From Candidatus Sulfotelmatobacter sp. (GTDB lineage: Bacteria > Verrucomicrobiota > Verrucomicrobiia > Limisphaerales > UBA11358): a stretch of DNA of 64,000 nucleotides. Location: positions 2,460-66,459 of the forward strand of contig DATJTK010000175.1 of the NCBI GenBank assembly GCA_035503455.1, read 5' to 3'. Positions 729 through 47,038 of this stretch are shown here, one piece after another; position 1 is the first letter of the stretch; each line of letters starts with the position of its first letter. The translations under genes were made by a program, and so were the position numbers. The notes beneath the pieces were generated by a model. The model was not told where the DNA came from. It worked only from the letters and a program-made list of their open reading frames with translations, and did not search any database.

Positions 729-2444
729 ATGTCGAAATCGAAGGTCATCAAATCCCAGCCGGACATAGCGCGGGAACAAGAGCCATTGGCTTCCGCCGAA
801 AACGATTCCGCACCGTCACCCAATAGCGGCCCACGCACGCTTCAGGACAAAGTCAAAGAACTGGTGCGCCTGTCGCGCGAACAGGGGCGCCTTACTTACA
901 ATGACATTGACGAAGTGCTCGACGGCGCCGCTCCGGAGGAGATGGACGAAGTCTTCGCCAAGCTCCATGCGCTGGACGTGGAAGTCGTGGATCAGGCCGA
1001 CGTGGACCGGGGCAAGCCCCAGGATTCGGATGAAGATGGCAGCCGTTTGGACGCCCTCGACGATCCGGTGCGCATTTACCTCAATCAAATGGGACAAGTG
1101 CCCCTGTTGACGCGGCAGCAGGAAATTGAAATTTCACAGCGAATCGAACTGGCCGAGGAGGACATCCGCAAAATCATTTATCGCCTCGGGTTTGTCGGCA
1201 AGGAGCACATTGCCATCGCCGAGCGCCTGTTGGCTGACCCTCCCAAGGACCGCTTTGACCGCGTGGTCCTTGACCATCTGGCCGAAGACCGTGAAGCCTA
1301 TTTAAAAGCCTTGCGCAAATTGGCTGCGCGCGTGCGCGACCTGGACGCGGAAGCGGACATGCATTTTGTGGCGTGGCGTGATTCCAGCCCCTCCCACCGC
1401 TCCGGGCACGAAGCGGCATTTCGCAAGACGGAGGAAAAGCTCGAGTCGCAGTTCGGGGAATTTGGCTTCAAGCGAATGGTCGTTGAGGAAATGGCGATGG
1501 TAGCCGAAAACATCCACGAAAAAATCCATTACAGCCTCCGCGCGCTGGTCGAAGCGGGCGAACAACGCGAATCCAGCGCCCAACAGCATCTGGTGGAAGC
1601 CGAACGGCAAAAAATTAAAGCGCTCGAGGAATTTGTCCGCATGCCGCACCAGGATTTTCTGGCATTGTTCAACCGCTTGCGCGAGTCCTCAACCCGTGCG
1701 CTCCAGGGCAAGACCGAGATGGTCGAGGCAAATTTGCGGCTCGTCATCGCCATCGCGAAAAAATATACCAATCGCGGGCTCTCCTTTTTGGATTTGATCC
1801 AGGAGGGCAACATCGGTTTGATGAAGGCGGTCGAAAAATTCGAGTACCGCCGCGGTTATAAATTTTCGACGTATTCTTCATGGTGGATCCGGCAGGCCAT
1901 CACGCGCGCCATCGCCGACCAGGGACGCACCATTCGCATCCCCGTCCACATGATCGACATCATCAACAAACTCATGCGTTCGCAAAAGCGCCTCCTGCAG
2001 GATTTCGGACGCGAACCTACTGCCGATGAAATCGCCGAGGAAATGCAGATGCCCGTGGACCGCGTCCGGCAGATCCTCAAAATGGCGCAGCAGCCAATAT
2101 CGCTGAGTTCCCCGGTCGGCGACGGCGACGACGCCAACGTCGGCGATTTTATCGAGGACAAAGGTGCTGGCGATCCCCTGGACCTCACGAGTTTCAGCCT
2201 GCTCAAGGACAAATTGGGCGACGTGCTGTGCAGCTTGAGCGAGCGCGAACAGAAAGTCCTGGAGTTGCGCTTTGGCCTGGGCGATGGCGATGCCCGGACA
2301 CTCGACGAAATCGGGCGCCAATTTCAGGTCACACGCGAACGCATTCGGCAGATCGAAGCCAAAGCACTCCGTAAAATGCGGCATCCCACCCGCATCCGCC
2401 AGTTGCACGGATTTCTTGAGATTAAAAAGTTGGACGTGGATTAG
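729..2444 (+). CDS. rpoD: RNA polymerase primary sigma factor (sigma-70 family)
   Basis: Regions 2-4 are recognisable: [63 protein letters not shown]; [30 protein letters not shown] prefer the ATG at 729 over the TTG at 669 used in the ORF track. Confidence 0.95.
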
Positions 2445-2470
2445 ATCGGCATTCGATGTTCATCTTGTAG

Positions 2471-2490
2471 GCCGGGTGCCCTCACCCGGC
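2471..2490 (+). terminator. GC-rich hairpin downstream of rpoD (gccgggtg-ccct-cacccggc), no U-tract
   Basis: Perfect 8-bp stem with a 4-nt loop, 27 nt after the rpoD stop. The missing T-run makes intrinsic-terminator function uncertain. Confidence 0.3.
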
Positions 2491-2742
2491 GCTTCCGTCG
2501 TCCGTTCCCACACGAACAGGCTGTCCTTGACCTGAATTCAAGGCCGGCCATTTACACCCACCCCCCGGCTCGAAAAATCCCGAATTTTCCAGCAAAACGG
2601 CCCCGTTTGCCGTCGCCATTACCGTTTTTACCCCGTCGTTTACCCGTTTACTCACCTATAGACACAAAATGTGAAAGTGTCTTTCGCGCGACCATTTCGT
2701 TGGCCCCTGTGCTTCCGTTGTCCGAAATGCCAGATTGCTGTT

Positions 2743-2778
2743 CCCTCTCCGCTCCCATTCTGATGGGAGGGGAGAGGG
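2743..2778. repeat. 16-bp-stem hairpin (ccctctccgctcccat-tctg-atgggaggggagaggg)
   Basis: Inverted repeat with 15 of 16 positions paired, in the rpoD-panC intergenic region. Confidence 0.6.
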
Positions 2779-2880
2779 TAAGGGTGAGGTGAGGGTCGGA
2801 TAGGGCAGTCGTTGGTCTGATTCCTTATTTCCTGCCTTCCTCATTTTCCCTTTTAATTTTTACACTCCTCCGTCACTTTC

Positions 2881-3756
2881 ATGTCGATGCAAACTGTCTC
2901 ATCCATTGCTTCAATGCAGCGTCTGGCAAACAAATGGCGGCGCGAGGGCGCGCTGATTGGGTTGGTCCCCACAATGGGATACCTGCACGCGGGACACCTG
3001 AGCCTGGCGCGCGAAGCGCGCAAACGGGTTGGCAAGGGCGGCCGCGTGGTGGCCAGCATTTACGTAAACCCCACACAATTTGCGCCCACCGAAGATTTTT
3101 CGAAATATCCTCGCGACCTGAAACGTGATTTAAATCTGCTCCGCAAAGAAGGCGTGGACGTGGTTTTTGCGCCGGACGACCGGGAAATGTATCCGGACCG
3201 GCGCGATGTTCCCGAAGGCTACAGCACCTATGTCGTCGAGGAAAAATTGTCGCGCAGCATGGAAGGAGCGTCGCGGCCAACACATTTTCGCGGTGTGACG
3301 ACCATCGTCGCCAAGCTGTTTAACATTGTCCAGCCGGACGTGGCCGTTTTTGGCCAAAAAGATTTCCAGCAGGCGGCAATCATCAAACGAATGCAGCGCG
3401 ACTTAAATTTTTCGGTGCGGGTGATTGTATCGCGGACGGTGCGTGAAGCTGACGGCCTGGCGATGAGTTCGCGAAACAAATATCTCGAAGGCGATTTGCG
3501 GCGGCAGGCGGTAGTACTGCGGCGCGCGCTGGATGCTGTCCAGTCGGCGGTCAAAAAATCCGGGAGAATTTCGGCGGACGCGCTGAAAGCGGACGTCAAA
3601 AAGCTCATCGAAACCGAGCCGGATGCGAAACTGGATTACGTGGAATTTTTCGAACCGGATACGCTCATGCCTGTGGCCGAGGTCTCGACGGGCAGCCAAA
3701 TGGCCTTGGCGGTGTTTGTCGGAAAAACAAGGTTAATTGATAATGAAAGGATCTAA
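2881..3756 (+). CDS. panC: Pantoate--beta-alanine ligase
   Basis: [14 protein letters not shown] and YVNPTQF motifs, with the typical length of about 290 aa. Confidence 0.93.
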
Positions 3757-8851: not shown

Positions 8852-8967
8852 CGTGATACGTGGTGCGTGTTACGTCAAGTACGTGGTCACGGGTGGTGGA
8901 ACACGGCGCGCTGCGCCGCAACGAGTGTGTTCACTCGTACTTGACGCATGGCGCACCACGCAACACG
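8852..8967. repeat. About 116-nt extended inverted repeat (32-nt arms, 25/32 complementary) between the H-X9-DG gene and moaD
   Basis: Arms at 8852-8883 and 8936-8967. The centre contains a further small hairpin, ggcgc-gct-gcgcc. The repeat starts 8 nt after the upstream stop and ends 9 nt before the moaD GTG. Confidence 0.7.
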
Positions 8968-8975
8968 ATGAGGCC

Positions 8976-9215
8976 GTGCGCATTCTATTTTTTGCCCAGC
9001 TCAAGGACGCCACGAAATGCGATTTCATTGAAATCGCGTTTTCATCGCCCGTGAGCTCTGAGGAATTGTGGGCTGAATTGCTCAAAAGATTTCCGGCGCT
9101 GGGAGGGCATCGTTCCAGCGTCCGTCTGGCGCGGAATTTCGAGTACATAACCGCTGACGCCCGTTTTTCCAACGGCGACGAAGTCGCGCTCATTCCACCG
9201 GTTTCGGGAGGATAA
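8976..9215 (+). CDS. moaD: Molybdopterin synthase sulfur carrier subunit MoaD
   Basis: C-terminus ...ALIPPVSGG (Gly-Gly end) in Moco operon context. I chose the GTG at 8976 to give the expected ~79 aa; the ORF-track start at 8853 would run through the inverted repeat. Confidence 0.7.
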   Translation: MRILFFAQLKDATKCDFIEIAFSSPVSSEELWAELLKRFPALGGHRSSVRLARNFEYITADARFSNGDEVALIPPVSGG

Positions 9216-9316: not shown

Positions 9317-11053
9317 ATGCATCAAGAGCGGATCATTGCAATGAATATTGAAATCGAGCTAACGAGAAACCCGATACCGGTACACATCGATCCGCCTCCG
9401 GCCGGCGCGCATGGGGCGTGGCTGGAATTTCGCGGCGTTGTACGCGATGAAGAAAATGGAAAGAAAATTTCCGTGCTCGAATATGAAGCCTATCCTGAGA
9501 TGGCGACGCGCGAAATCCGCCGGTTGCTTGAAGAAATATCCTCGCGTCATCCCTGTCTGGCGGCCGAAATCATTCATCGTCTCGGAATTATTCCAGTTGG
9601 GGAAACGGCCATCTATGTCGGCATCGCATCGGCCCATCGCGCTGAGGGCATTGCGCTTTTGGGCGAATTCATGGACAAGCTCAAACAGGATGTGCCAATT
9701 TGGAAAAGCCGCGCTGTGCCAACTGGGGAAAGTTCGGCGGAGAAGGCACCGATCGAACCGACAGGCCGGGCAGTCCAGTCCCAGATAGGGAATGCGTTCG
9801 GGCGGCCAGCCGATTTGGAAATCGGCGATACGGCAAAGCGCACCGCTTCCCCCGTGACGTCTCTGGATCAAGCTCTGGCAAGGATTTCGGATCACTGCGT
9901 TCCGCTCCCGGCTGTGGCCATGCCGCTCGACGTAAGCTTTGGCTTTGGGCGCGTCCTGCGCGAAACAGTCCTCGCCCCGACGGATTTGCCGGACTGCGAC
10001 CGTTCCACGCGAGACGGCTACGCCATTTTGGAAAACGATTCTTCCGCAAGCTTTCAAATCGTTGATGCCATTCATGCCGCCGATTGGAAACCGCGGCAAT
10101 TGGAACCCGGCCAAACCGTTCGCGTTGCCACTGGGGCATCACTCCCATGCGCCAACCTGCGGGTCATCATGCAGGAAAATGTCGAGCGCAACGGGGAACA
10201 AATTCGGGTTCTGAAACGTGAAACGGACTTCAATATTCGCAGGCGTGGCGAAGAAATAAAAGCCGGCGCACCACTCGTTCAGGCCGGCGAATATCTGAAC
10301 GCCGGCAAACTCGCCTTGCTTGCGTCAGCGGGCTGTGTCCGGCCTGTGGTCAGCCCCCGGTTGCACGTCTTTCATTTCACGACCGGCGACGAAATTGTCC
10401 CTCCCTATCAGACGCCAAAACCCGGCCAGATTCGTGACAGCAACTCGTTCCTGATTCGCGGTCTGCTCCGACATTTTCGGTGCGTTTTGTTTCAGGACCA
10501 TTTGCGGGAAGATTTTAAATTAGCGACAACGCAAATTTCCAACCGAAGAGAAGAACTGGAAAGAGCCGACGTGGTGTTGTTCTCTGGCGGCGCAAGCGTT
10601 GGCGACAAAGACTTCACCCGGCCTTTGCTTGTGTCATTGGGTTTTGAAATCGTATTTTCGAACGTGCCGATTCGACCAGGCCGTCCGACTATTTTTGGAG
10701 TGAATGGCCGGCAAATTGCCTTTGGATTACCGGGAAATCCGCTGGCCCACTTCGTTTGTTTTTATTTATTTGTGGCGCCGGCGCTGGCACTATTGTCCGG
10801 CGGCAGGACGCCAGGGTTTTTGCGCGGCACGCTGGCGGCGCGTTTGGATGATGCCGCAAACCCGCGCGAAACGCTTTGGCCGGCGCGGCTGGAGTTGGCA
10901 GGCGGCCAGGCGCGCTTGCGCCCGCTTGCGTGGTCCAGTTCCGGTGATGTCACCTGCCTGACGGAAGCAAATGCTTTGCTTCGCGTCCCGCCGAATTGCA
11001 ACGAAATGGAACCAGGCGCGGGGATCGAATTTTTGCCGGCCAACGGGCTATGA
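9317..11053 (+). CDS. MoaE-MoeA fusion protein (molybdopterin synthase catalytic subunit fused to molybdopterin molybdenumtransferase)
   Basis: N-terminal part is MoaE-like (LEFRGVVRDE...EYEAYPEMA...IYVGIASAHRAEG...DVPIWKS). From about aa 180 it is MoeA-like (SLDQAL...DRSTRDGYAI...GGASVGDKDF...LPGNPLA). No in-frame stop lies between them. An alternative start is the ATG at 9341. The in-frame GTG at 9854 could also start a stand-alone MoeA. Confidence 0.85.
   Translation: MHQERIIAMNIEIELTRNPIPVHIDPPPAGAHGAWLEFRGVVRDEENGKKISVLEYEAYPEMATREIRRLLEEISSRHPCLAAEIIHRLGIIPVGETAIYVGIASAHRAEGIALLGEFMDKLKQDVPIWKSRAVPTGESSAEKAPIEPTGRAVQSQIGNAFGRPADLEIGDTAKRTASPVTSLDQALARISDHCVPLPAVAMPLDVSFGFGRVLRETVLAPTDLPDCDRSTRDGYAILENDSSASFQIVDAIHAADWKPRQLEPGQTVRVATGASLPCANLRVIMQENVERNGEQIRVLKRETDFNIRRRGEEIKAGAPLVQAGEYLNAGKLALLASAGCVRPVVSPRLHVFHFTTGDEIVPPYQTPKPGQIRDSNSFLIRGLLRHFRCVLFQDHLREDFKLATTQISNRREELERADVVLFSGGASVGDKDFTRPLLVSLGFEIVFSNVPIRPGRPTIFGVNGRQIAFGLPGNPLAHFVCFYLFVAPALALLSGGRTPGFLRGTLAARLDDAANPRETLWPARLELAGGQARLRPLAWSSSGDVTCLTEANALLRVPPNCNEMEPGAGIEFLPANGL
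9795..9833 (-). repeat. Copy of the 'GATTTCCAAATC hairpin' repeat family inside the MoaE-MoeA linker (in frame)
   Basis: 37 of 39 nt are identical to the reverse complement of 46882-46920 (intergenic copy after rarA). Contains the hairpin gccgatttggaaatcggc (9809-9826). Translated as ...FGRPADLEIGDT... Confidence 0.85.
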
Positions 11054-11056
11054 ATC

Positions 11057-11506
11057 ATGAAAGAAAAATTTTCGCATTTAGATGAGCACGGCGGGGCACG
11101 GATGGTCAATGTCGGACGCAAGCCGGCCTTGCGACGCACGGCCGTCGCGGAAGGGCGTCTCATTTGCCAACCTTCTACCATTCAAGCGCTCAAGAAACAT
11201 GCCCTCCCGAAAGGCGATGTTCTGACCGTCGCGCAGATTGCCGGCATTCAGGCCGCCAAAAAAACGGCCGAACTGATTCCCCTTTGCCATACACTCCCGC
11301 TCAGCCACGTCGAAGTGAGCTTTAATATTCGTGCCGGAGCCGTTGAAATCCTGTGTTCGGCGGAGACAGTTTCACAAACCGGAGTTGAAATGGAAGCCCT
11401 GGCCGGCGTCACCGTCGCGGCCCTGGCGCTCTATGACATGTGCAAGGCCGTGGACAAGGAAATGCGCATTGACGGCATTCGCGTCGTCGAAAAAACCAAA
11501 GGATGA
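11057..11506 (+). CDS. moaC: Cyclic pyranopterin monophosphate synthase MoaC
   Basis: MVNVGRKP..., IPLCHTLPL and [23 protein letters not shown] motifs. Confidence 0.93.
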
Positions 11507-11994
11507 AAATCGGCCGCATTACTATCAGCGACCGTGCCAGCGCGGGCATTTACGAAGACCGGAGCGGCCCGGAAATTGAAAAGGCATTGTGTGACTTTTT
11601 AGGCAGCGCGGTCAAATTTCAATCGGCCATTGTGCCGGACGAAGTCCCGTTGATTACCGCGGCGCTCAGGAAATTCGCGGATGAAATGAAGTGTGACCTG
11701 GTGGTGACAACGGGCGGCACGGGAATTGCCTCACGCGACGTGACACCGGAAGCCACGCGGCCTGTTCTCGAAAAGGAATTGCCCGGCTTCGGCGAAGCAA
11801 TGCGAATGCAATCGCTGGCAAAAGTGAAAACGGCCATTTTATCCCGCGCCCTGGCAGGCACGCGCGGCCGGACACTGATCATCAACCTGCCCGGCAAACC
11901 AACCGCCGTGCGCGAATGCCTGGAAATCCTCGCCCCGGCCATCCGTGAAGGCGTTGCGCACTTGCGCGGCGACGATCCACATGACAGAATATAA
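11503..11994 (+). CDS. mog: Molybdopterin adenylyltransferase (MogA/MoaB family)
   Basis: ITISDRASAGIYEDRSGP and VVTTGGTGIASRDVTPEA motifs. ATGA start/stop overlap with moaC. Confidence 0.88.
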   Translation: MKIGRITISDRASAGIYEDRSGPEIEKALCDFLGSAVKFQSAIVPDEVPLITAALRKFADEMKCDLVVTTGGTGIASRDVTPEATRPVLEKELPGFGEAMRMQSLAKVKTAILSRALAGTRGRTLIINLPGKPTAVRECLEILAPAIREGVAHLRGDDPHDRI

Positions 11995-12005
11995 ATGACA
12001 TTATT

Positions 12006-12980
12006 GTGGACGCTCACGGACGAAATATTGATTACCTGCGCATCTCGATCACCGACCGGTGCAACGAGCGGTGTCTTTATTGCATGCCGGAAGGCTACAA
12101 AGGCTGGGAAACCACGCGCGACCATCTCACAGCGGAGGAAATCATTCGCGTGGTCCGCATTGCGGCAGGAATCGGATTTCGCAAGTTCCGACTCACCGGC
12201 GGCGAGCCGCTGGTCCGCCGCGATATCCTGGACGTCGTCCAGGGAATGAAACAAGTCCCCGGCGTCGAGGACGTCGGTCTCTCGACGAATGGGACAAAAC
12301 TCGGTCCGCTGGCCGGGCCGCTTCGCGCGGCGGGTGTTCGCAGCGTGAATGTAAGCCTCGACGCGCTCGACCCGGGGATTTATCGCCGGGTGACCGGCGG
12401 TGATTTGGATTTGGTCCTGGCCGGCATCCGCGCCGCCTCGACGTCCGGCTTTGAACGCATCAAATTGAATTGCGTCCTGATGCGCGGCGTCAACGAAAAC
12501 GAAATTTGGCCGCTCGTCCTCTTTGCGGCTGAGCATGGATTTCCTTTGCGGTTCATCGAACTCATGCCGTTGACCCGCACGGAAGTATTGACTGAGGAGA
12601 ATTTCTTTCCCATCGGCGATGCCATGCGGCTTTTGTCCGGGCGCGACGAATTGGTTCCGCAACCGGGCGCGCGCATTGGCCACGGTCCGGCCGCGTATTA
12701 CCTGCTGCGGCACACTGGCGCCCTTGTCGGTTTTATCGGCGCGCTGACGAATCTCCATTTTTGCGATCAGTGCAATAAAATGCGCCTGACTTCGGACGGT
12801 AAAATTCGTCCCTGCCTGGGCAACCACGGCGAACTCGATTTACGCGCCGTATTGCGCGAAGGCGGGAACGATGAAGCCCTGCGAGCCGTCTTCCTCGAAG
12901 CCCTTCGCATCAAACCGCTGGAACACGAGTTCCGGAATCAATATCAGCCCCAGCGGCCAATGACGGCGATTGGCGGATGA
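12006..12980 (+). CDS. moaA: GTP 3',8-cyclase MoaA (radical SAM)
   Basis: DYLRISITDRCNERCLYCMPE (CxxxCxxC) and the C-terminal cluster CDQCNKMRLTSDGKIRPCL. GTG start. Confidence 0.93.
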   Translation: MDAHGRNIDYLRISITDRCNERCLYCMPEGYKGWETTRDHLTAEEIIRVVRIAAGIGFRKFRLTGGEPLVRRDILDVVQGMKQVPGVEDVGLSTNGTKLGPLAGPLRAAGVRSVNVSLDALDPGIYRRVTGGDLDLVLAGIRAASTSGFERIKLNCVLMRGVNENEIWPLVLFAAEHGFPLRFIELMPLTRTEVLTEENFFPIGDAMRLLSGRDELVPQPGARIGHGPAAYYLLRHTGALVGFIGALTNLHFCDQCNKMRLTSDGKIRPCLGNHGELDLRAVLREGGNDEALRAVFLEALRIKPLEHEFRNQYQPQRPMTAIGG

Positions 12981-12991
12981 TGGCTGGCCGG

Positions 12992-13176
12992 GCGCCGTAG
13001 CGCAGTTTTCCAAACCTGCCGACTTGAGCGGTTTGGGAAACCGCGAAAGGGATTGCCGGAGCGAAGCGAAGGCAAGGCAAGGCAAGGCCCGAAGGGCCGA
13101 GCGAGCGGGAGCGAGCGAGCCAATCGCCGATTTCCAAATTGGCCAGCCGTCCGACGTTGTACTATGCCGCGCGCCC
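12992..13176 (+). repeat. Composite hairpin repeat, copy A (divergent, interrupted by low-complexity (GGCAA)3 / GAGCGAGC tracts)
   Basis: Has gtagcgcag + hairpin gcagttttccaaacctgc (13002-19), gcggtttgggaaaccgc (13028-44) and gccgatttccaaattggc (13126-43) + cgacgttgtactatgcc. Homologous to copies at 17332-17556 and 46853-47037. Fills the gap between the convergent moaA and GH29 genes. Confidence 0.8.
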
Positions 13177-17331: not shown

Positions 17332-17556
17332 ACGTCGTAGCGCAGGTTTCCAAACCTGCTGTATCGCGGGTTTCCAAACCCGCTGACCGTACGGCGTCAT
17401 GCGCCCGTACAACCTGGGGACGAACGCGGTACGTCCGCCGCGCCAGCCGAAGGGGGCGACAAATTGCGACTTTTCTGAACTCCGACGTCGTACTACGCCG
17501 TGCGACCAGCAGGTTTGGAAACCTGCGATACAGCAGACTTGGAAGTCTGCGCTACG
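17332..17556. repeat. Composite hairpin repeat, copy B (MITE-like: two-hairpin left arm, ~120-nt centre, inverted two-hairpin right arm)
   Basis: Left arm: gtagcgcag + gcaggtttccaaacctgc (17341-58) + gcgggtttccaaacccgc (17365-82). Right arm: gcaggtttggaaacctgc (17508-25) + gcagacttggaagtctgc (17532-49) + gctacg. Lies between fucI and fucP. Confidence 0.85.
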
Positions 17557-26854: not shown

Positions 26855-27075
26855 TATCCCGAAGGGATAAATGGAAATAGCCCGGCGTTTCAACGCCGGG
26901 TAGGAACGAGGAAGGATACGAGTCCCGCAGGGACGGCTGAACGGAGCGTGTGGAATATGAATGATCTGGCGGGAGCCGATCAGTCGTCCCGTTCGGGACT
27001 TATGCAATTCCGAATTTTGCCCGGCATTAAAATGCCGGGCTATTTCCAATTGTCCCTTCGGGACACGAAATGCGC
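26855..27075. repeat. MITE-like element: 46-nt terminal inverted repeats (40/46), each made of two hairpins
   Basis: The left arm (26855-26900) matches the reverse complement of 27030-27075. Four of the six differences form two compensatory stem pairs (tAtccc/gggaTa vs tGtccc/gggaCa; cccggcG/Cgccggg vs cccggcA/Tgccggg). Confidence 0.75.
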
Positions 27076-46852: not shown

Positions 46853-47037
46853 CGTCGTCGTAGCGCAGGTTTCCAAACCTGCCGTATCGCCGATTTCCAA
46901 ATCGGCTGGCCGTGCGAACGTCGTTTATTGCGAGATCCGAAGTTTATGGTTCCATTACAAATCGGCCGTCGCGCGACCTCGAACGACCCGCAGGTTTGGA
47001 AACCTGCGACACAGCAGACTTGGAAGTCTGCGCTACG
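46853..47037. repeat. Composite hairpin repeat, copy C (full MITE-like unit)
   Basis: Left arm: gtagcgcag + gcaggtttccaaacctgc (46865-82) + gccgatttccaaatcggc (46889-906). Right arm: gcaggtttggaaacctgc (46990-47007) + gcagacttggaagtctgc (47014-31) + gctacg. It starts right after the rarA stop and ends 1 nt before the next ATG. Confidence 0.85.
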
Positions 47038-47038
47038 A

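Follow-up and report, generated by a model that had tools for sequence, protein, structure and literature searches.

A palindromic repeat fragment read in frame in the linker of a MoaE-MoeA fusion gene of a Limisphaerales bacterium

Repetitive extragenic palindromes (REPs) are extragenic by name and by the usual observation. Dispersed palindromes that lie in frame in many genes have been described in Rickettsia as the Rickettsia palindromic elements (RPEs) (Ogata et al., 2000, 2002; reviewed in PMC10969869). In-frame insertions and fusions of miniature transposable elements with inverted repeats (MITEs) have also been reported in bacteria, and these include intragenic ERIC and BOX elements and the MITEs of Anabaena (PMC10969869). 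A separate body of work concerns gene fusions in the biosynthesis of the molybdenum cofactor (Moco). The known cases comprise gephyrin and Cnx1 (a Mog-like G domain and a MoeA-like E domain), MoaD-MoaE (MoaX), MoaC-MoaB, MoaC-MoaE, and MobB-MoeA, and others have been catalogued (PMC11237513). A fusion of MoaE with MoeA is not described in the literature found on Moco fusions, and is present and annotated in databases. Such a fusion, with a fragment of a REP family read in frame within its linker, is described here from a 64,000-nucleotide (nt) stretch of Candidatus Sulfotelmatobacter sp. (Verrucomicrobiota; Limisphaerales), namely positions 2,460 to 66,459 of contig DATJTK010000175.1 in assembly GCA_035503455.1. 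This whole stretch is referred to as the window, and coordinates without a contig or locus name are positions within it.

An earlier reading of the letters of the window (the original prediction) had proposed that a REP-like element in the gap between moaE and moeA, together with the loss of the moaE stop codon, created the fusion by read-through. The history favored here, with a probability of about 0.82, is different: a bifunctional MoaE-MoeA enzyme of long standing, in whose flexible linker a REP fragment has lately settled as a tolerated passenger, in a genome with an RPE-like, genome-wide habit of such insertions.

The repeat fragment in the MoaE-MoeA linker

The open reading frame (ORF) at 9317-11053 on the plus strand runs for 578 amino acids (aa) without an internal stop, and encodes MoaE followed by a complete MoeA, as had been predicted. 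According to a Pfam scan, MoaE (PF02391; 89.9 bits against a cut-off of 23.4) covers residues 31-124, while MoeA_N, MoCF_biosynth, and MoeA_C (113.9, 76.2, and 35.4 bits, respectively, each above its curated cut-off) cover residues 182-574. A search of the PDB agrees with this assignment. MoaE chains were matched with E-values of 1e-15 to 1e-19 (1FM0_E aligns to residues 32-142), E. coli MoeA aligns to residues 180-526 (E-value 1e-47), and the E domains of gephyrin and Cnx1 are also among the matches; no chain in this search covers both the MoaE and the MoeA part. The MoaE part contains the motif LKQDVPIWK, and its Lys115 and Lys122 (570-aa numbering) are invariant in 18 homologues. These are presumably the counterparts of the active-site lysines of E. 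coli MoaE, Lys119 and Lys126, which lie in an LK...PxWK motif. The NCBIfam MoeA equivalog model, NF007960, scores the fusion at 248 bits, which misses its cut-off of 440, and Glp/gephyrin-type models give a similar score (208 bits). Judged by these scores, the MoeA part is a divergent member of the MoeA family, whose exact functional equivalence is not certified by NF007960. The protein, presumably made as a single chain, would be bifunctional and serve as both the large subunit of molybdopterin synthase and the molybdenum insertase. Its real start is likely to be ATG 9341 (570 aa, MNIEIELT...) because most homologues begin at MNIEIELT.

The original prediction had matched 37 of 39 nt of the linker to the reverse complement of an intergenic repeat arm, and this match has not only held but been lengthened: 9795-9835 and 46880-46920 are complementary at 39 of 41 nt (95%). 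An nhmmer profile made from 15 canonical copies matches 9790-9835 with an E-value of 2e-16 and extends no further. The 18-nt core of the repeat, GCCGATTTCCAAATCGGC, has five matches in the window, as compared to 0.02 expected (none of 100 shuffles reaches the observed count), and 62 exact copies in the 5.9-Mb assembly. The best of the other copies (C51:32295 and C111:15449) differ from the linker 41-mer at a single base, as does the family consensus. Because it departs from its best-matching copies and from the consensus by only 1 base in 41, the linker copy appears to be young.

The fragment, with a length of precisely 14 codons, is translated in frame as Ala160 to Ala173; the tryptic peptide that covers the REP-encoded stretch, derived from the sequence, is AVQSQIGNAFGRPADLEIGDTAK. 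The earlier claim that a hairpin repeat is read in frame therefore stands, but for one hairpin unit and approximately 14 nt of inner flank only. The linker has palindrome A together with the inner flank and the GATACGGCA junction, and lacks palindrome B, the second hairpin (GCAGGTTTGGAAACCTGC) that comes next in most of the 62 core copies. No longer or second-arm remnant was found around 9700-9870, as the BLAST and nhmmer matches end at 9790-9835. Resemblances noted by eye upstream (CAGATAGGGAATG) and downstream (GCGCACCG vs. GCGCTACG) were not significant and were dropped. Inspection of the flanks (...GGGAATG / AAGCGCACC...) revealed no target-site duplication around 9794-9835. A target-site duplication is not expected for elements of the type mobilized by a REP-associated tyrosine transposase (RAYT).

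A further likeness to the repeat lies outside the linker. The conserved VPIWK of MoaE (9693-9706) is encoded by GTGCCAATTTGGAAA, and at the sister locus L021 the same codons, GTGCCGATTTGGAAA, are identical to the 13 nt with which the REP palindrome begins; one frame of the REP, in turn, encodes QPIWK. This likeness is probably a coincidence.

Relative age of the fusion and the repeat

Among the 5.8 billion proteins searched for homologues, more than 100, with lengths of 540-619 aa, combine the same four Pfam domains with 60-85% identity. They belong to Limisphaerales and Verrucomicrobiae, and are named either MoaE or molybdopterin molybdotransferase in the databases. The fusion is present in at least 11 genomes of the same genus; in eight of these it is a single uninterrupted match over both domains, and in several more both halves lie in one frame. 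A genome from another family of the order (G034) also carries it. In a tree of the MoeA domain, the main fused set forms one clade (support 100/99), within which the window protein is sister to the metagenome locus L021 (100/100); two other loci in the tree, L005 and L013, are fused by inspection. The split state is represented by G020, in which the stop of a 138-aa moaE overlaps the GTG start of moeA by 4 nt. At one more locus (L010; G017:C11, ~1483-3151, minus strand), moaE and moeA lie in different frames and the N-terminal region of MoaE is garbled, which is either an assembly indel error or a decaying fusion.

The REP family, on the other hand, has 158 copies in this genome, none in 23 of the 24 genomes of the same genus, and 2-12 in five genomes of other families. 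The linker of L021 is 27 aa long, those of the next closest proteins (79-85% identity) reach up to 31 aa, and none of them has a trace of the REP. Since the fusion is clade-wide and the REP family is absent from nearly all genomes of the genus, the insertion post-dates the fusion; being recent and lineage-specific, it cannot be the source of a clade-wide fusion. The comparison of moaE and moeA organization among relatives, which the original prediction had itself suggested, has thereby turned against the read-through origin that it proposed.

The linker appears to be a site where extra residues are tolerated. The stretch from PIWK to SLDxA could be measured in 99 of 120 homologues, those in which both anchor motifs were found, and ranges from 21 to 103 aa (median 32) with essentially no alignable sequence. 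An AlphaFold2 (AF2) model computed from an 18-sequence alignment shows no secondary structure in the linker (predicted local distance difference test, pLDDT, of 24-27; the model is weak), suggesting that it is disordered.

The following history may be proposed. The MoaE-MoeA architecture would have been inherited from the common ancestor of a Limisphaerales-type clade of Verrucomicrobia. After the split from the closest sampled relative, one GTATC-headed palindrome with its inner flank (42 nt, 14 codons) would have become fixed in the middle of the linker. Its source would be the RAYT-mobilized REP family of the genome itself, and it may have arrived as a partial insertion or as a full arm that was trimmed later. 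The insertion would have survived because its length is a multiple of three, its landing frame is open and hydrophilic (AFGRPADLEIGDTA), and the site tolerates extra residues. The insert is thus most likely a neutral passenger that lengthens the linker, rather than an adaptation or the cause of the fusion.

Several points weigh against this history. The AF2 model has a mean pLDDT of 52, which makes it weak as a whole, and the proposed disorder rests on it and on the variability of the linker sequence. The difference in linker length is 20-24 aa, which exceeds the 14 aa explained by the REP. A MAFFT alignment of the linker DNA with that of L021 was ambiguous and uninformative because the linker is too diverged, and the ends of the insertion rest on the repeat profile and the difference in length. 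The genome itself is a fragmentary, metagenome-type assembly of 182 contigs. Finally, hairpin repeats occur exactly at this site in many lineages, which might reflect either selection for hairpin formation or a repeat that was already here in an ancestor.

The REP family, its transposase, and its other host genes

The REP unit consists of a head, GTAGC or GTATC, and an 18-nt palindrome, NNNNNTTTCCAAANNNNN. Its stem occurs in four versions (CAGGT, CCGAT, CGGGT, and CAGAC), each of which keeps the palindrome, consistent with compensatory change. From the center outwards, a typical arm contains the inner flank CGTTCGGACGGCCA, palindrome A, GATACG, palindrome B, and GCTACG, and a full element (REPIN) has two inverted arms ~60-100 nt apart. 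With no more than one mismatch allowed, 347 modules were found at 135 loci in this genome; the 158 copies counted above are those of the GTAGC unit. The copy closest to that of the linker by position is at 13123-13154 and is 88% complementary to 9798-9829. The moa operon thus ends with the same REP family that is found in its linker, 3.3 kb downstream of the linker copy. A second hairpin repeat family, seen in the window at 26857-27063 (TCCCGAAGGGA...CCCGGCGTTTCAACGCCGGG), occurs dozens of times in this genome.

A 240-aa RAYT gene (L028:1429-2151, minus strand; G000 contig C38) scores 82.5 bits with NF047646 (cut-off 80). Inverted REP doublets of the linker's family lie on both sides of it, ~115 nt from each gene end (a REPtron). 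Because of these doublets, the linker repeat family is assigned here as a REP/REPIN family with a cognate RAYT, and the RAYT encoded on C38 is predicted to mobilize it. Near the other RAYT or Y1-transposase candidates (C108, C27, C9, and others), REPs of this family are absent. The family departs from the extragenic habit of REPs in that, besides the linker copy, at least eight further loci fall within ORFs; most loci are intergenic.

Intragenic copies were counted by an ORF-span heuristic rather than with a gene caller, and make up ~7% of REP sites. Elsewhere in this genome, a REP lies in frame in at least eight genes, with the ORF open over long distances to either side (Table 1), and Pfam indicates that the inserts split, or sit in, real domains. 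A REP arm (e.g., 46856-46920) is open in five of its six reading frames, and the closed frame contains the TAG of the GTAG head. Of the five open frames, the intragenic copies found all use one or the other of only two, the most hydrophilic pair (FGRPADLEIGDTAGLETCAT and VAQVSKPAVSPISKSAGRPN). This is the pattern expected from selective survival, and suggests that only hydrophilic translations are tolerated.

Two of these genes could be compared with relatives. The class-III aminotransferase orthologues in 30 related genomes lack exactly residues 108-166, with the exception of G027. In G027, which belongs to a different family, the aminotransferase (L036, G027:C215:10243-11625) has an unrelated, repeat-like insert of ~45 aa (...SNFKSQISNLK...) at the same point. 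The lutB and lutC genes form a single frame of 762 aa in this genome (L031, G000:C10:39836-42088, minus strand), with a REP-derived bridge of ~75 residues at approximately residues 457-534. In the 18 related genomes with a match, lutB and lutC are mostly separate, abutting or overlapping ORFs, and three genomes have one frame. The lutB-lutC ORF resembles a fusion of two genes across a REP bridge, and it is plausible, from the sequences compared, that the read-through mechanism of the original prediction operates elsewhere, as at this locus.

The MoaE-MoeA linkers of relatives have likewise been occupied by repeats. Other dispersed repeats, usually strong hairpins, were found in the linkers of the seven related genomes or contigs tested and of five homologues (Table 1). 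Nine of 13 linkers fold as hairpins, with z-scores of -1.7 to -7.1, while control segments of the same genes are mostly near -0.3. The linker of the sister locus L021 has no hairpin (z = +0.86), and that of the window folds no better than shuffled sequences (z = -0.6 for 9780-9860 and 0.09 for the whole linker), with a stem of only 7 bp. The original prediction had called the use of a repeat as a protein linker unusual; with the other in-frame genes of this genome and the repeat-bearing linkers of relatives, that was an overstatement.

The operon has the order moaD / moaE-moeA / moaC / mog / moaA. The start of the moaD-like gene is probably a GTG inside ORF 8853-9215, and the moaD-like neighbor at L021 is also 79 aa long.

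Table 1. Features of the window, REP-bearing ORFs elsewhere in the genome, and repeats in the linkers of homologues
Feature	Position	Strand	Basis or content
moaD-like sulfur-carrier gene, ThiS family, 79 aa, ends ...PPVSGG	8976..9215	+	Pfam ThiS at aa 44-120 of the 120-aa ORF
Fused moaE-moeA ORF, 578 aa from ATG 9317	9317..11053	+	ORF list, Pfam, homologue search and alignment
MoaE domain, up to and including conserved LKQDVPIWK	9407..9706	+	Pfam PF02391; PDB 1FM0_E
Inter-domain linker, aa 131-179	9707..9853	+	Homologue alignment, length survey, weak AF2 model
REP fragment, 42 nt, AFGRPADLEIGDTA	9794..9835	-	Repeat search, BLAST, nhmmer profile
REP fragment: inner flank	9794..9808
REP fragment: palindrome	9809..9826		GCCGATTTGGAAATCGGC
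REP fragment: head and adjoining bases	9827..9835		GTATC (minus strand)
MoeA part (MoeA_N, MoCF_biosynth, MoeA_C)	9854..11050	+	Pfam, alignment, PDB
moaC	11057..11506	+	Pfam MoaC, 1.7e-53
mog/moaB-like MoCF_biosynth gene	11503..11994	+	Pfam
moaA (radical SAM and Mob_synth_C)	12006..12980	+	Pfam
Rearranged REP cluster, 13 nt past the moaA stop	12993..13154	.	Repeat comparison in the window
Full REP inverted doublet (REPIN) of the linker's family	17332..17556	.	Repeat comparison in the window
Full REPIN of the linker's family; left arm is the copy compared in the original prediction	46853..47038	.	Repeat comparison in the window
UvrD/AddA-like ORF	C8:12570-12609		REP in frame, near the C-terminal end
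HrpB-like helicase ORF	C39:6476-6515		REP in the HA2 domain
Membrane protein ORF	C96:14627-14666		REP in frame
PAP2-PMT_2 protein ORF	C92:112636-112675		REP between both domains
AMP-binding enzyme ORF	C27:2842-2881		REP inside the AMP-binding domain
GH92 ORF	C2:21096-21111		REP inside the N-terminal domain (GH92_N)
Class-III aminotransferase (Aminotran_3) ORF	C143:3346-3515 (L035)		Whole 57-aa element splits the pyridoxal phosphate (PLP) domain at profile positions 83/84
lutB-lutC ORF	C10:40561-40690 (L031)		REP cluster between both genes
Linker of L022 (related metagenome contig)			~95 nt of the repeat family at window 26857-27063, translated ...PGVETPGYFQSSLSG...; dozens of copies in this genome
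Linker of G015			Repeat of ~80 nt; the G015 genome has at least 9 further copies
Linkers of G021 and G007			Palindrome, dozens of copies in each genome
Linker of G004			Repeat with 22 other copies
Linker of G003			Repeat with 9 other copies
Linker of G016			Few weak partial copies
Linkers of P0014, P0008, P0023, P0010, and P0007			Peptides match 5-81 places in this genome (tblastn), at the peptide level only

Alternative histories and relation to known systems

The recurrence of repeats in the linker lends itself to an ancestral form of the read-through idea: an intergenic REP-type palindrome would have given rise to the fusion, the linker would since have been overwritten or re-colonized in each lineage, and the present copy would be the latest occupant. 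The linkers of most tested relatives consist largely of one palindromic repeat with other copies in their own genomes. These repeats often start with a GTAG head 13-25 nt past the PIWK codons and stop a few codons before the MoeA N-terminus, and the hairpin scores of nine of the 13 linkers (z-scores at or below -1.7) stand apart from those of most controls. Moreover, the GTAG head gives a TAG in only one frame, such that a one-base shift would turn a terminating REP into a read-through, and the lutB-lutC pair, separate in most relatives with a match, is bridged by REP-derived sequence here. However, at 21-28 aa the shortest linkers of fused proteins have about the combined length of the MoaE tail and the MoeA N-terminus in the split G020 genes (15 + 12 aa), and therefore a plain stop loss or a frameshift at overlapping genes would be enough. 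The repeat families at the site are unrelated to one another, for which independent insertion into a permissive spot is the simpler account; the same recurrence is seen at the aminotransferase loop, which was never intergenic; and the sister lineage has no hairpin. An ancestral REP at the birth of the fusion is considered quite unlikely on this balance. The broader proposition, that the REP palindromes of this clade are a general source of linkers and fusions, including MoaE-MoeA by intergenic-REP read-through with its linker re-occupied and lutB-lutC as an ongoing case, is likewise judged to be unlikely.

Strong hairpins recur in the linker DNA of many relatives, and REP-type hairpins within operons affect mRNA stability. 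The hairpin might accordingly be kept for a role as a nucleic acid, such as a translational pause that allows MoaE to fold or dimerize, the processing or stability of the mRNA, or internal initiation of a free MoeA at GTG 9854. Yet the window linker, with its short stem, folds no better than shuffled sequence, and a hairpin is missing altogether from the sister lineage and from a number of further homologues. As for the internal start, which had been raised in the original prediction, the in-frame GTG is indeed there and encodes Val180, but neither valine nor methionine is conserved at this position in the homologue alignment, and sequence inspection found no purine-rich, Shine-Dalgarno-like stretch upstream of it (such signals are weak at all genes of the operon). 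A nucleic-acid role is therefore very improbable. The fragmentation of the assembly into 182 contigs would be the reason to suspect a chance similarity or an artifact of a metagenome-assembled genome, and the original prediction had held that relatives with the same linker but no similarity to the repeat family would point to a chance match. The closest relatives have shorter linkers that lack the repeat. The profile E-value and the shuffles speak against chance. In addition, the sequences on either side of the insert are parts of one gene and can be aligned to homologues, the inserted length amounts to precisely 14 codons and leaves the frame open, and inserts of this kind lie in frame in at least eight further genes. 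Chance or artifact is scarcely credible.

With the recent insertion of a REP fragment into an old fusion as the preferred reading, two events can be told apart: a clade-wide gene fusion, and the later arrival of selfish DNA in its linker. The MoaE-MoeA architecture is common in these genomes. A free-living bacterium can translate REPs as parts of its proteins, at permissive sites that are struck repeatedly by different repeat families in different lineages, a pattern that is classically that of Rickettsia. If this is general, odd low-complexity inserts and apparent fusions in genome annotations may be derived from repeats, which bears on the evolutionary origin of linkers and fusions, and such sites would offer protein engineering a set of naturally validated, insertion-tolerant positions.

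Compared to the known Moco fusions, the present protein similarly brings steps of one pathway together in one polypeptide with a flexible linker. Unlike those fusions, the steps of MoaE and MoeA are non-consecutive, as the adenylation step of Mog lies between them. The linker unit resembles intragenic MITEs as a small, non-autonomous element that keeps its host ORF open, and differs from them in that no target-site duplication is seen and the unit is a fragment rather than a complete element.

The anatomy of the family is that of the REP/REPIN-RAYT systems of Proteobacteria (e.g., E. coli, Pseudomonas, and Stenotrophomonas): a GTAG-type head with a short palindrome, copies that number in the hundreds and are often arranged as inverted doublets, stems that vary but remain palindromic, and a single-copy Y1 (HUH) transposase gene flanked by repeats. 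In contrast to the proteobacterial systems, the units here are also translated inside genes, the arm of a doublet contains two different palindromes, and the host belongs to another phylum. As with RPEs, dispersed palindromes lie in frame in unrelated genes, yield a conserved peptide at tolerant sites, and recur across the genome and in related species. RPEs are ~100-150 bp in length, whereas the units here are short (a head and an 18-nt palindrome) and have a cognate RAYT. The likeness noted is one of behavior. The hosts also differ, in that RPEs reside in the reduced genome of an intracellular bacterium, while the present family inhabits a free-living Verrucomicrobium with a genome of ~6 Mb and only a small intragenic share. 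By behavior, the closest known parallel to these in-frame REPs is the RPEs, and by anatomy and transposase they are of the REP/RAYT kind.

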